Counted from the stretch's first letter, positions 5,354-42,604 are shown. The stretch: 64,000 nucleotides of DNA from Parcubacteria group bacterium Gr01-1014_8 (GCA_007376385.1 VMGC01000003.1:32001-96000); one strand, 5' to 3'. Notes: generated by a model not told the origin, from the letters alone. Translations and numbers: made by a program.

Positions 5354-6238
5354 CTAGCGGGCATCCAAGGACTTTTCTGCATCAATGAAGGATTGTATGT
5401 CCCCTCCGAGCACTTTTTCAACGTCCCTGCGTTCATGCTCCGTTCTGTGGTCCTTCACCAATTGATATGGATGGAGCGTGTATGAACGGATCTGACTTCC
5501 CCATTCTATCTTTGTCGAAGTGCCTGCCGAAAGTCCTCGCGCCTCCTTATCTTGTGCTTCTTGCCGCATTTTAAACAGTTTCCCTCGAAGCATTTCAAGC
5601 GCTTTTTCTCGATTTTGGAGTTGACTCCTCTCGCTCGTGACATGCACGGAGATTCCAGTCGGTTTATGTGTCATTCGCACCGCCGTGTCCCGCTTGTTCA
5701 CATTTTGTCCGCCTGGACCACCTGAACGTGCAACGGTAATTTCAAGCTCTTGCTCAGGAATGTGCGATTCGCCGACATCGGGTAATTTCGGCAATATCTC
5801 AACTAACGAAAAAGAAGTTTGCCTCTTACCTGCAGAATTAAACGGGGACATGCGGACGAGTCTATGAACGCCTGCCTCTCTTTTTAAAGCTCCGAAAACA
5901 CCGGAGCCCGCTATCTCAAACGAGACGCTTCGGTATCCTCCCATTGTATTTTGATTTGAATCAATAAGTCCTGCCTGCCATCCTTTAGATGCCGCATACT
6001 TTCCATACATTTCAAAAAGAATGCGCGAGAAATCCTCCGCATCGTCTCCCCCAGCTCCAGAAACTATCGACACTATCGCATCCCCTTTGTCGTAGCCTTC
6101 ACTCCCTGCAAGCTGTTGTTTCAAATGTTGATACTCCTTCAATATTTCCTGCGCTTTATCTTTATTGCTCCAAAAGTCCGGCGCTCTCATCGCTGTCTCA
6201 ATATCCCCAATTCTTTTTTCGATAAGTTCTTTTTGCAT
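5354..6238 (-). CDS. prfB: Peptide chain release factor 2 (N-terminally short form)
   Basis: 294 aa. SPF tripeptide (RMSPFNS) and GGQ motif ([10 protein letters not shown]). The start codon lies 2 nt from the tRNA-Thr 3' end, so there is no room for the frameshifted N-terminal exon found in canonical prfB. Confidence 0.85.
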
Positions 6239-6239
6239 A

Positions 6240-6315
6240 TGGAGCCACCTCCCGGGCTTGAACCGGGGACCTACCCCTTACGAAGGGGTTGCTCTACCAA
6301 CTGAGCTAAGGTGGC
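6240..6315 (-). tRNA. tRNA-Thr (anticodon CGU), CCA encoded
   Basis: Minus-strand sequence GCCACCTTAGCTCAGTTGGTAGAGCAACCCCTTCGTAAGGGGTAGGTCCCCGGTTCAAGCCCGGGAGGTGGCTCCA folds as a cloverleaf. Anticodon loop is TTCGTAA. Confidence 0.85.
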
Positions 6316-7838: not shown

Positions 7839-7995
7839 ACATTGAAATATTTGAGTCTCAATTGTACTCCACTCGAACCTATTTTGCCGAACACTGCTGA
7901 TGTCGCGTGCTCCGCGCGCGGAAATCCCATTCCCCCCTACGCGGCGCTTCGCGCCGCGCGTATTTCGGCCTCTGAAAAGCCATTGAGTTTGATTC

Positions 7996-8280
7996 TGGAG
8001 CCGATGTCCGGGATTGAACCGGAGACCTCGTTCTTCGCTTACACCTCTCCTTTAGATATTCGAGAGGGCTAGACTGTATCTTCCCCCCACTTTTTTTGAA
8101 TTCTTAAAGTGGGGGACCCTTGTCAGTCGTTCGGGCGAATCAAGCAAAATGCTCGTCGCCACGGTCTGAACCTTTCGAGGCCTTTAACCGTAATTCGGGA
8201 TTCATTCAGACGTTACCGCCCGAATGGGCAGGGGTCTGCGACCCACCAAGAACGTGCTCTACCAACTGAGCTACATCGGC
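7996..8280 (-). tRNA. tRNA-Thr (anticodon GGU) interrupted by a group-I-like intron after position 36
   Basis: 5' exon 8280->8245: GCCGATGTAGCTCAGTTGGTAGAGCACGTTCTTGGT. 3' exon 8035->7999: AAGAACGAGGTCTCCGGTTCAATCCCGGACATCGGCT, followed by CCA. Joined, the exons give a perfect cloverleaf (acceptor GCCGATG/CATCGGC, anticodon stem CGTTC/GAACG, loop TTGGTAA). The gene is 87 % identical in its arms to the neighbouring tRNA-Thr(CGU). Confidence 0.75.
8036..8244 (-). ncRNA. Putative self-splicing group I intron (about 209 nt) within tRNA-Thr(GGU)
   Basis: The 5' exon ends in U and the intron ends in G (omega-G). An internal AAGATACAGTCTAGCC resembles the Tetrahymena P7/P9.0 segment AAGAUAUAGUCGGACC, with a CAGACCG partner. 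A P8-like hairpin is present (CCCCCAC...GTGGGGG). No ORF inside. Size and insertion site match the Azoarcus tRNA-Ile intron. Confidence 0.6.
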
Positions 8281-8408
8281 TAAAACATTTGCTCCGCAAA
8301 TGTTCGCCCGAACATTCGGGATTGAATGTTTTAGGGCCTATTGCGCTTATATCAGCGCAAATCGATACTAGCACGCACCCTCTAATTTCTCCATGATAAA
8401 ATTGCCAT

Positions 8409-8630
8409 ATGACGGAAATAGAGAAACATCCGCTCAAATATTTGAGCGAAAATATGGGCGTCGCGCTTGGGCTCGTCTTGATATGGCGTGGCCTGTGGTA
8501 CGGGCTCGACGCGATAGATATGTGGGTGTTTGGAGGTACGCACATGTTCACTGCTATTTTCGGCGTGCTGCTCGGGGTCCTTATTTTGTATCTTCCGCAT
8601 CGCGATCTGAGTGCTCTTGAACGGCTGTAA
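8409..8630 (+). CDS. Small predicted membrane protein
   Basis: 73 aa with two hydrophobic helices. Sits immediately upstream of gdh. Confidence 0.35.
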   Translation: MTEIEKHPLKYLSENMGVALGLVLIWRGLWYGLDAIDMWVFGGTHMFTAIFGVLLGVLILYLPHRDLSALERL

Positions 8631-8666
8631 TATCTCTTTTCACGAAGTTGTCGTAAGATACTCCGA

Positions 8667-9908
8667 ATGGCTGTCGTAAATCCGTTCACGTCATATATTG
8701 AACGCCTCGCACGCGCTGCGCGCGCCTTGGGACTCTCGGAAGTCGAAAAAAAACGATTGTCAGAGCCAAACAACATTGTAGATACTCAGATAGAACTTAC
8801 GCGTGATAATGGAACAGTAGAAAGACTCCGCACCTACCGCGTACAATTCAATAATGCACGCGGGCCGTATAAAGGCGGGATCCGCTTTCACAAGGCGGCG
8901 GACTTAGACGAAGTAAAGGCGCTGGCTGCGGCCATGGCAATAAAGTGTGCGGTAGTTGATATTCCGATGGGAGGCGCTAAAGGAGGTGTCCAATTTGACC
9001 CAAAGCAATATTCAGAAGCGGAAATAGAGCGAGTCGCACGAGCATTCATCCGAGCTATGGGTGATGCAATCGGCGCCGACAAAGATATTCCCGCGCCAGA
9101 CGTATACACCAACAGCAACATAATGGGCATCATGCTGGATGAGTTTCAAAAAATGCACGGCCGAAATGAACCCGCCATGATAACGGGAAAGCCGCAGGGA
9201 CTCGGCGGAATAGTCGGTCGTGACACAGCTACAGCACAAGGCGGTGTGTATGTGCTCGATTACTTTGTGAGTGCTCTTGGTTTCAAGAAAAAAGGTCTGC
9301 GCGTCGCAATACAAGGGTTTGGGAATGCGGGGGCTACCGCTGCAAAGATCTTGAGCGGAGATGGACACAGTATCGTCGGCATTTCCGATAGCAGCGGAGC
9401 TCTCCTATTCGAAACTGGGCTGGACATAGACAAACTCCTTCTTGAAAAAAACAAAAGCGGCGAGTTAAAAGATACGCGTGCAAGAATCGCAACAAATCAG
9501 GAGCTATTAGAAACGGACTGTGATGTTTTGATACCTGCCGCACTCGACAATCAACTGACCGTTGAAAATGCGCCTCGGGTAAAAGCAAAAATAATACTGG
9601 AATTGGCCAACGGGCCAACTACTCCGGAGGCGGACGTGATTTTCGGGCAACGAGACATTACTGTCATCCCCGATGTACTAACTAACGCGGGGGGAGTTAC
9701 CGTATCCTATTTTGAATGGCTGCAAAATCGGGAAGGAAGCATCTGGTCGGAAGAAAAAGTACGCGAGCAATTGAAAGAAATAATGACAAAAGCATCCGGC
9801 GTTCTATGGAAAAAATCAAAGGAACTGAATGTCCCCCTCCGAGATGCGGCGTTCCTTCTTGGCGTTGAACGAATTGTGAGTGCTATGAGGACCCGGAGGG
9901 CTGTCTAA
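8667..9908 (+). CDS. gdhA: Glutamate dehydrogenase (Glu/Leu/Phe/Val dehydrogenase family)
   Basis: 413 aa. Catalytic-Lys motif KGGIRF and the conserved DIPMGGAKGG box. C-terminal Rossmann GFGNAG. Confidence 0.9.
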   Translation: MAVVNPFTSYIERLARAARALGLSEVEKKRLSEPNNIVDTQIELTRDNGTVERLRTYRVQFNNARGPYKGGIRFHKAADLDEVKALAAAMAIKCAVVDIPMGGAKGGVQFDPKQYSEAEIERVARAFIRAMGDAIGADKDIPAPDVYTNSNIMGIMLDEFQKMHGRNEPAMITGKPQGLGGIVGRDTATAQGGVYVLDYFVSALGFKKKGLRVAIQGFGNAGATAAKILSGDGHSIVGISDSSGALLFETGLDIDKLLLEKNKSGELKDTRARIATNQELLETDCDVLIPAALDNQLTVENAPRVKAKIILELANGPTTPEADVIFGQRDITVIPDVLTNAGGVTVSYFEWLQNREGSIWSEEKVREQLKEIMTKASGVLWKKSKELNVPLRDAAFLLGVERIVSAMRTRRAV

Positions 9909-29774: not shown

Positions 29775-29992
29775 ATTGAAAATTGTAGCTCCGACTGTGC
29801 TCTTCGGGTACTCGGGTCAGTCCGATAAAAAAGTCTTCGGGCGGTGAGATATTAGTCTTTGCTCGAACCCACTTCGCACGCGCGGAGCGCGTGGTGGCTT
29901 GAAACTGAAGCGTACGCCCCGATTCCGCTGACTCTCGCCTCTGCCGCGCCGCTTTGCGGCGCGGCTCTGTCCGAACTCGAAGTTTCTATCTG

Positions 29993-34936: not shown

Positions 34937-35182
34937 AACAATCCGCCCACAAGGACACTTTGGAAACACCACAAGAGTACTTCAGAAAATATACTCGTGC
35001 CACTCGTTATTTTCTTGGTCACACCTCAAGGGTACTTCCATTTTTCTAAGCCGGAGTACCGGCAAGAAAAATTGGTCGCCCACGGTTTTCCAACGGGCTT
35101 CGCCCTGCCTTCCTCCACGGGAAACAAAGTGTTTCCCCGACCCCCTTCCTGTCCAAGCGGGCGTCCATTCATTTCATTCATG

Positions 35183-35256
35183 TCCGCCCGCTTGGACTCG
35201 AACCAAGGACCCTCGAGGTATAAGCTCGATGCTCTAACCAACTGAGCTACGGGCGG
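35183..35256 (-). tRNA. tRNA-Ile (anticodon UAU)
   Basis: Minus-strand CCGCCCGTAGCTCAGTTGGTTAGAGCATCGAGCTTATACCTCGAGGGTCCTTGGTTCGAGTCCAAGCGGGCGGA. Anticodon stem TCGAG/CTCGA, loop CTTATAC. Confidence 0.8.
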
Positions 35257-42159: not shown

Positions 42160-42547
42160 GGGGGTGACTGGTTTCGACAGGAAATTCAATGTGCTTGTGT
42201 GCAAGACGGAAGTGAGAACCTTCCTAAAAAATCTCAAACTCTAAGTGCAAACAAAACTGCACGGGGGGTTCTTTCGCCGATTCAGGCGAAAGACCTCGGC
42301 CTCGTTTTCGCTTAATCGCCCAAACGACCGTTCGTTCAGCGGGTACTCGATACCGTTGACGCGAGCGTCATAACCATCGAGTCCGGTTTCTATTTCACTC
42401 CGAGTAGAGACTTAAAGAAAGAGAGTTAGCCGACGTATGCTTTCGTTCATCTTCTACATACATCGGCGAATCTTCAAGATGAACTACGTCTTGTAGACGC
42501 GCCTGTGCATCATTTCTTGGACTCGAGTTCAATTCTCGACACCTCCA
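42160..42547 (+). ncRNA. ssrA: tmRNA (SsrA)
   Basis: 5' GGGGGTGACTGGTTTCGACAGG pairs with 3' ...CACCTCCA, including the G3:U70 alanine identity pair. T-arm TTCAATTCTCGA. Internal reading frame GCA AAC AAA ACT GCA ... GTT TTC GCT TAA, where the resume-codon context (GTGCAAAC) resembles E. coli (GTCGCAAAC). Lies directly downstream of smpB. Confidence 0.8.
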
Positions 42548-42604
42548 CTCGATTCGCCTCTCGCTAACGCTTGAGGCTCGCTCGTGGCAAGCCACCAGTC
42601 AATA

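Follow-up and report, generated by a model that had tools for sequence, protein, structure and literature searches.

What interrupts the tRNA-Thr(GGU) gene of this genome, and is the insert of a kind that could remove itself from the transcript? In the window, by which we mean the whole 64,000-nt stretch of DNA that was analysed, two tRNA halves lie on the minus strand, 209 nt apart. The 5′ exon (GCCGAUGUAGCUCAGUUGGUAGAGCACGUUCUUGGU, 8280–8245) holds tRNA nucleotides 1–36 in 36 nt, ends in CUUGGU with the anticodon G34 G35 U36, and was aligned with its counterparts in 133 homologues. The 3′ exon (AAGAACGAGGUCUCCGGUUCAAUCCCGGACAUCGGCU, 8035–7999) holds nucleotides 37–73 in 37 nt, starts with AAGAACG, and is completed by an encoded CCA at 7998–7996, extending the exon to 7996..8035. 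Joined, the exons make a 76-nt tRNA, CCA included, which ARAGORN calls tRNA-Thr(ggt) with a perfect cloverleaf: the acceptor pairs GCCGAUG with CAUCGGC, the anticodon stem pairs CGUUC with GAACG, and the loop reads UUGGUAA. An earlier note on this DNA had described the two halves, their 209-nt separation on the minus strand and the flawless tRNA-Thr(GGU) that they form when joined, all of which we find again with the same coordinates and sequences. The same is true of a second, intronless tRNA gene, tRNA-Thr(CGU), 1.7 kb from the split gene, which lies at 6240–6315 (minus strand) and is followed by prfB-ftsE-ftsX-pyrG. The top matches of the joined tRNA in E. coli are annotated as tRNA-Thr, and among the tRNAs of the window the exon halves are closer to tRNA-Thr(CGU) than to any other. 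The split gene is detected neither by ARAGORN with default settings nor by the Rfam tRNA model. Threonine codons ACU and ACC account for 348 of the 920 threonine codons in the window (38%), and the related loci described below (932 kb) contain 42 tRNA-Thr(CGU) and 26 tRNA-Thr(UGU) genes and no intronless tRNA-Thr(GGU).

The insert (8036..8244, minus strand) is 209 nt long, starts with GGGUCG and ends with AAGCG. It has no sense-strand ORF of its own; a mechanically called ORF of 187 aa (8213–8776, minus strand) overlaps exon 1 and has no Pfam match. The folding energy is −81.6 kcal/mol (z = −5.1 versus shuffles). A search with the Rfam model Intron_gpI (RF00028), which had been proposed as a check, gave a divided answer: at a relaxed threshold there is a partial match that spans P8, J8/7, the 3′ strand of P7 and P9, with AAGAUACAGUCUAGCC aligned to the J8/7-P7-P9 part of the model and GAAGAUACAGUCUAG aligned to the consensus gAAGAUAUAGUCua, and its score of 15.3 bits (E = 0.2) is below the gathering score of 50. 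No other Rfam family reaches its gathering score in the intron either. The RF00028 seed holds no bacterial sequences (Williams 2020). Requiring a significant RF00028 match would wrongly discard the finding, as this intron class is known to score below threshold. Since neither the Rfam score nor the folding z-score decides on group I identity, relatives of the locus were sought.

Species-representative genomes were searched with a pattern made of the tRNA-Thr D-arm, the anticodon loop and the J8/7 motif, and metagenomes with an intron-only pattern (P7-J7/3-P3′ plus J8/7). The genome pattern returned 22 loci, nearly all labelled Saccharibacteria, Paceibacterota, Nomurabacteria, Moraniibacteriota or Taylorbacteria (CPR), and the metagenome pattern returned at least 120 contigs. 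Altogether 142 homologous loci were collected, the closest of which is at most 72% identical to the window copy; with the window they make 143 regions and 134 unique sequences. The metagenome pattern preset both P7 strands and the 3′ side of P3; the genome pattern left them free, and in the sequences found with it they are still invariant. One genome locus is labelled Bdellovibrionales (L007, 676–959); a Saccharibacteria MAG of that study, ERP113451, has an identical locus (L012, 2775–3058), and the contig is therefore probably a mis-binned CPR contig. All 143 regions were aligned to a profile HMM (hmmbuild/hmmalign/nhmmer). A profile of the 133 homologues, with the window excluded, matched 8280–7999 end to end with 222 bits (E = 1.6e-67). 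The RF00028 scores of two relatives, 24.7 bits (L009) and 21.4 bits (L073), are likewise below 50; the model aligns L009 end to end (model positions 1–253, E = 2e-4 on 300 nt) in the canonical P1–P9 order, and it places P3 in the same spot as the comparative model presented here.

A MAFFT alignment of 20 sequences was folded with RNAalifold, which yielded the four tRNA stems, P1, P2 and P4–P9; the pseudoknotted P3 and a P9.0 of 2 bp were added. Standard pairs fill 96% of the cells in this alignment, 40 of the 72 pairs show changes on both sides, and the covariation score is 0.41, versus 0.14 for shuffles (reached in 0 of 500) and 0.05–0.11 for slid partners. Compensatory changes are found in P1, P2, P5, P6, P8, P9.0 and P9, and across the 134 sequences P5, P6, P8 and P9 each show several pair types. 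P3 (CCC/GGG), P4, P7 (GACUG/CAGUC) and J8/7 are essentially invariant among the 134 sequences, P3 consisting of three invariant C-G pairs, so that the catalytic core is backed by conservation and topology and not by covariation. In the exons of the 20-sequence alignment the tRNA pairing is kept, and its acceptor, anticodon and T stems covary; most metagenome copies carry A32 in the tRNA. The group I hallmarks to which the earlier note had pointed, namely a U before the insert, a G at its end, the P7 core, the P8 hairpin and the lack of an ORF, are upheld by the 134 unique homologues.

The splice junctions were read from the same sequences. The copies that include both ends have the form (A/U)UGGU, intron, AA without exception, and a terminal intron G is present in every sequence that reaches the 3′ end. 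This uniformity indicates that the host is always tRNA-Thr(GGU), inserted at 36/37, with an exon-final U and an intron-final G. We consider it very likely that the locus is the genome's tRNA-Thr(GGU) gene, in a Patescibacteria host, with a compact, ORF-less group I intron at 36/37 that would be removed by guanosine-initiated splicing.

A P1–P9 secondary-structure model, which had also been suggested as a check, was built for the window, and all of its pairs were examined and are canonical (coordinates are on the minus strand throughout). The 5′ strand of P1 (8242..8247) joins exon G34 G35 U36 to intron G1–G3, with the 5′ splice site between 8245 and 8244, and its 3′ strand is the internal guide CCUGCC (8227..8232, intron 13–18), in which G16 wobbles with U36, the U at position −1. 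Across the family this U36·G wobble is kept in 130 of 130 sequences; the pairs below it are G34-C and G35-C, and the three intron pairs above it covary (GU/AU/UA/GC). Only G34–U36 of the exon enter P1, which allows the anticodon stem to persist and to align the exons. The minimum-free-energy register of the 5′ hairpin (G1–C13) was replaced by the comparative register, which extends the exon-guide helix. The guide is followed by P2 (8203..8226, intron 19–42), a 10-bp hairpin with a GUAA (GNRA) loop in which 9 of 9 counted pairs have changed on both sides. The invariant 5′ strand of P3, CCC (8197..8199, intron 46–48), pairs with GGG (8117..8119, intron 126–128) and thereby forms the P3/P7 pseudoknot. 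A longer P3, GACCC(9–13)/GGGUC(126–130), was tried and rejected, since the UAU-type members do not conserve it and P1 already uses positions 13–15.

The P4-P5 domain (8161..8191, intron 54–84) consists of P4, ACGGUU/GACCGU (8186–8191 with 8161–8166), invariant except for a U·G/C-G switch, which encloses the A-rich J4/5 and J5/4 and the P5 hairpin (8169–8182), whose pairs covary. It is followed by the P6/P6a hairpin (8134..8160, intron 85–111), also with covariation at base pairs. The 5′ strand of P7 (8124..8130, intron 115–121) is an A, a bulged C and GACUG, invariant in 134 of 134 sequences; it pairs with 8071–8076, which leaves C116 bulged beside the pair G117–C173. From the canonical layout of group I P7 helices, G117 (8128) is the predicted partner in the guanosine-binding pair. 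P8 (8083..8116, intron 129–162) is a GC-rich hairpin of 11 bp. The invariant J8/7, AAGAUA (8077–8082), matches the RF00028 consensus gAAGAUAUAGUC and continues into the 3′ strand of P7, CAGUCU (8071..8082 together, intron 163–174). P9.0 pairs GC (8068..8069, intron 176–177) with GC at 8038–8037, next to the terminal ωG at 8036 (8036..8038), and the 3′ splice site lies between 8036 and 8035; these two pairs are formed in 133 of 133 sequences, with the types GC/AU/UA/CG and CG/UA/UG. P9 (8044..8067, intron 178–201) carries a 12-nt loop and not a GNRA tetraloop. The 3′ exon shows no evident P10 pairing.

The periphery suggests tertiary contacts. In IC3 introns the L2 tetraloop docks into a receptor in P8 and L9 docks into P5, P5 is simple, and P2.1 is absent. 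Among the Thr introns, the type of L2 co-varies with a motif in P8: GAAA loops occur with CUA[AC]...[UC]A[UC]G in 48 of 74 cases and other L2 loops (GYAA, GCGA, GGAA) in 0 of 52 (Fisher p = 4e-16, kinship ignored). By its sequence, this asymmetric P8 motif resembles the 11-nt GAAA receptor. The window copy combines L2 GUAA with a plain G-C helix in P8 and the 12-nt L9, for which a contact with P5 is uncertain. By analogy, the L2-P8 logic of the Thr family resembles the Azoarcus-type IC3 architecture.

Could the same insert be something else, or be spliced in another register? ARAGORN in intron mode (-i) reports the native locus as tRNA-Arg(gcg) i(35,209), that is, a tRNA-Arg(GCG) with its intron between 34 and 35, two bases more 5′, and in the window this intron would likewise end in G. 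In that register, however, the exon-final base would be G34, which pairs with a C in P1, and the conserved U36·G would fall inside the intron; the base two positions before ωG is A in about half of the family, so the terminal G would be lost in these members. The second anticodon base would alternate between C and U on a constant tRNA body, which is itself Thr-like, and P9.0 stops exactly one base before G209. The call is a documented error of the program, which assigns two of the three published Thr introns to Arg(GCG) at 34/35 (Nakagawa et al. 2026, Table 1; PMC13011429), and we give the Arg register practically no chance. The failure of every Rfam family to reach threshold would also be compatible with an insert that is not group I at all, for instance a bulge-helix-bulge intron of the archaeal type or a miniature mobile element lodged in the anticodon loop. 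Yet the P1–P9 order, the P3/P7 pseudoknot, the J8/7 consensus, the U·G at position −1 and ωG with P9.0 all fit group I; the insert has no terminal repeats, and the profile search finds a single copy in the window. The site 36/37 differs from the canonical 37/38 of bulge-helix-bulge introns, of which no motif was found here. The comparative structure effectively refutes this explanation, which we hold to be hardly credible.

The intron might instead be decayed and no longer spliced, the gene being a tRNA pseudogene, with ACU and ACC read by tRNA-Thr(UGU). The sub-threshold Rfam score and the very short P3 could be taken in this sense, and tRNA-Thr(UGU) genes are present in the relatives; an unmodified U34 is able to read four-codon boxes. 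Against decay, all core elements are intact in the window, and the many compensatory changes by which the 134 sequences keep their pairing require that the RNA fold be under selection. The exons, too, hold perfect tRNA pairing with covariation in three stems, and no related locus has an intronless Thr(GGU) nearby. A pseudogene is therefore very improbable. A true group I intron could also be a poor self-splicer that needs a host protein in vivo, a chaperone or a maturase-like factor. The 3-bp P3 and the minimal periphery could leave the fold marginal, and the Thr family has been described as divergent (PMC13011429). No ORF with a relevant domain lies in or beside the intron, however, self-splicing is on record for bacterial tRNA introns of similarly small size (literature cited in PMC13011429), and the co-variation of tetraloop and receptor suggests a fold stabilised by RNA only; we regard dependence on a protein as unlikely.

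The group I fold of the intron is thus supported by comparison of sequences, and its chemistry would be that of the established group I pathway. In the proposed route, exon G34-G35-U36 and the first three intron bases would pair with the guide CCUGCC to form P1, with the U·G wobble at the cleavage site, while the anticodon stem of the tRNA would remain formed and hold the exons together in lieu of P10. The core P3–P9 would then assemble from the P4-P6 stack, the P3/P7 pseudoknot and J8/7. A free guanosine would dock in P7 at G117–C173, beside the bulged C116, and attack the bond after U36. The two-base P9.0 would next bring the terminal G209 into the same pocket, and the 3′-OH of U36 would attack the bond before A37, which would release the intron and leave the 76-nt tRNA with the loop UUGGUAA. 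Self-splicing of the tRNA-Thr intron family is accordingly a prediction from the modelled fold.

Introns of this kind in this tRNA, at this site and in this phylum are already on record: the class received its name in 2018, a model in 2020 and an entry in a published table in 2026. The term "divergent group I introns" is credited to Castelle et al. 2018, and Nakagawa et al. 2026 list in their Table 1 tRNA-Thr(GGU) introns at 36/37 in three complete Patescibacteria genomes, GCA_001029635.1, GCA_016700375.1 and GCA_030583745.1 (PMC13011429). [quoted passage not shown] The earlier note had called a group I intron in tRNA-Thr of an apparently CPR-like genome unusual; as a claim of novelty this does not hold in view of that table. 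Going by the published description, the window intron shares with the published ones the tRNA and anticodon, the site 36/37 and the phylum, and it behaves alike with the tools, being missed by RF00028 and called Arg(GCG) 34/35 by ARAGORN.

The site 36/37 is the classical one of bacterial tRNA-Arg and tRNA-Ile2 introns (PMC13011429; Williams 2020), so that the match in site with proteobacterial tRNA-Ile/tRNA-Arg introns proposed for this locus is confirmed. With the Arg(CCU) and Ile2(CAU) introns the window copy shares the position after the third anticodon base, a length of about 200 nt and the lack of an ORF. These introns of the Agrobacterium/Azoarcus type, which Reinhold-Hurek and Shub are said to have described in 1992, reportedly lie at 36/37 and belong to IC3. 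The Thr family as a whole has in common with them a short P1, a guide followed directly by a P2 hairpin with a GNRA loop, the L2-P8 tetraloop/receptor logic, and the absence of P7.1/P7.2. The two groups differ in tRNA and phylum, no primary-sequence likeness was detected between them outside J8/7-P7, and P3 is reduced to 3 bp in the Thr family, unlike in the Arg/Ile2 introns. The tRNA-Leu(UAA) intron of Anabaena and other cyanobacteria and of plastids (IC3) is likewise a group I intron in the anticodon loop, and it self-splices; unlike the window intron it sits at 34/35 and has 249 nt, and it gave no significant profile match. It is the anticodon stem that keeps its two exons in place (Zaug et al. 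1993, cited in PMC13011429).

The Patescibacterial Asn, Asp and Tyr introns share with the Thr family the phylum, the anticodon-loop setting and the general lack of ORFs, and they differ from it in the site (35/36) and the tRNAs; in the Asn introns a further hairpin separates P7 from P3′, which is absent from the Thr family. A comparison of the Thr-family profile with eight published introns gave the Doudnabacteria tRNA-Tyr intron as the best match (P3–P9, 11.6 bits), which fits the published grouping with Patescibacterial introns. In the published intron tree the Thr introns, which have a long branch, group with other Patescibacterial introns within the IA clade and not within IC3, a placement drawn from that tree only (PMC13011429). 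The IA traits P7.1 and P7.2, which lie between P7 and P3′, are absent in 134 of 134 sequences, the spacer in that place being the four bases ACAA only. With the invariant 3-bp P3 and an Azoarcus-like L2-P8 periphery, this absence would speak against the IA affiliation in the literature and for a distinct minimal group I class, which would have been inherited vertically in much of Patescibacteria, its host being the sole tRNA-Thr(GGU) gene there. We put this forward tentatively, as an unlikely reading; if it were true, maturation of tRNA-Thr(GGU) would be obligatorily coupled to guanosine-dependent splicing, which could serve as a growth-state checkpoint.

What is new here is a wider census, which takes in at least 22 species-level genomes and at least 120 metagenome contigs, always with the same tRNA and site, and an explicit P1–P9 model backed by covariation, with precise splice sites and candidate tertiary contacts. 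The model applies to a predicted ribozyme family of roughly 190–215 nt, which is much commoner than the three published cases suggest. As the gene is missed by standard annotation, the genome would seem to be without a tRNA-Thr(GGU), or would gain a spurious tRNA-Arg(GCG), and split genes missed in this way affect the completeness estimates of CPR genomes.

The flanking genes point to the lineage of the host. The prfB, ftsE, ftsX and pyrG products of the window are 76–83% identical to, and in the same order as, those of a Candidatus Paceibacterota MAG (L004), and exact copies of the GDH protein of the window are found on an ENA metagenome contig and a Logan contig. Judged by its sequence, the host is a Patescibacteria member with a Paceibacteria-like genome, and the earlier description of the genome as CPR-like was right, given the flanking proteins and gene order shared with L004. 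In the collected loci (L001–L142), prfB lies beside the intron-bearing tRNA-Thr(GGU) in 37, and genes for tRNA-Thr(CGU), Met, Trp, Asp and Tyr are frequent neighbours; this recurrent synteny suggests a tRNA/translation-factor cluster conserved across CPR lineages.

Some features close to the split gene were also noted. The leader directly 5′ of the tRNA (8284–8329, minus strand) holds two adjacent hairpins, to which the weak Rfam match Pox_AX_element at the same position is a spurious, chance fit. One of these hairpins carries AAUCCCGAAU, which is identical to the J2/3-P3-J3/4 segment of the intron (8193–8202); there are 2 matches in the window versus 0.30 expected, and 2 are reached in 6 of 100 shuffles. 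The repeat could be due to chance, or the leader could compete with P3. A scan for promoters and terminators near the gene gave nothing above the shuffle expectation, with no convincing promoter upstream. About 40 nt 3′ of the tRNA-Thr(GGU) end, at 7940–7958, lies a GC-rich hairpin, CGCGGCGC-GAA-GCGCCGCG, and a relative of it with 3 mismatches is found at 29945–29963, some 30 nt 3′ of tRNA-Ser(GCU). Two unrelated metagenome contigs (L077, 2466–2484; L095, 2913–2931) have the identical 19-mer 3′ of their intron-bearing tRNA-Thr, and in the window there are 3 matches versus 0.04 expected. This hairpin may be a terminator that lacks a T-tract or a processing hairpin of tRNA genes.

Other translation genes of the window have features of their own. 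The release factor 2-like ORF (5354–6238, minus strand) has 294 aa only and starts right after tRNA-Thr(CGU), and the usual prfB frameshift leader would not fit in; its PCRF match starts at profile position 86 of 194, so the N-terminal domain seems shortened, and the length is the same in L004 and L112. A tRNA-Ile with the anticodon UAU is called by both ARAGORN and Rfam at 35182–35256 (minus strand). In most bacteria AUA is decoded by a CAU tRNA modified with lysidine, and tRNA-Ile(UAU) is uncommon. A one-piece standard tmRNA lies at 42160–42550 (plus strand, 139 bits), and its predicted tag, ANKTARGVLSPIQAKDLGLVFA, is rather long.
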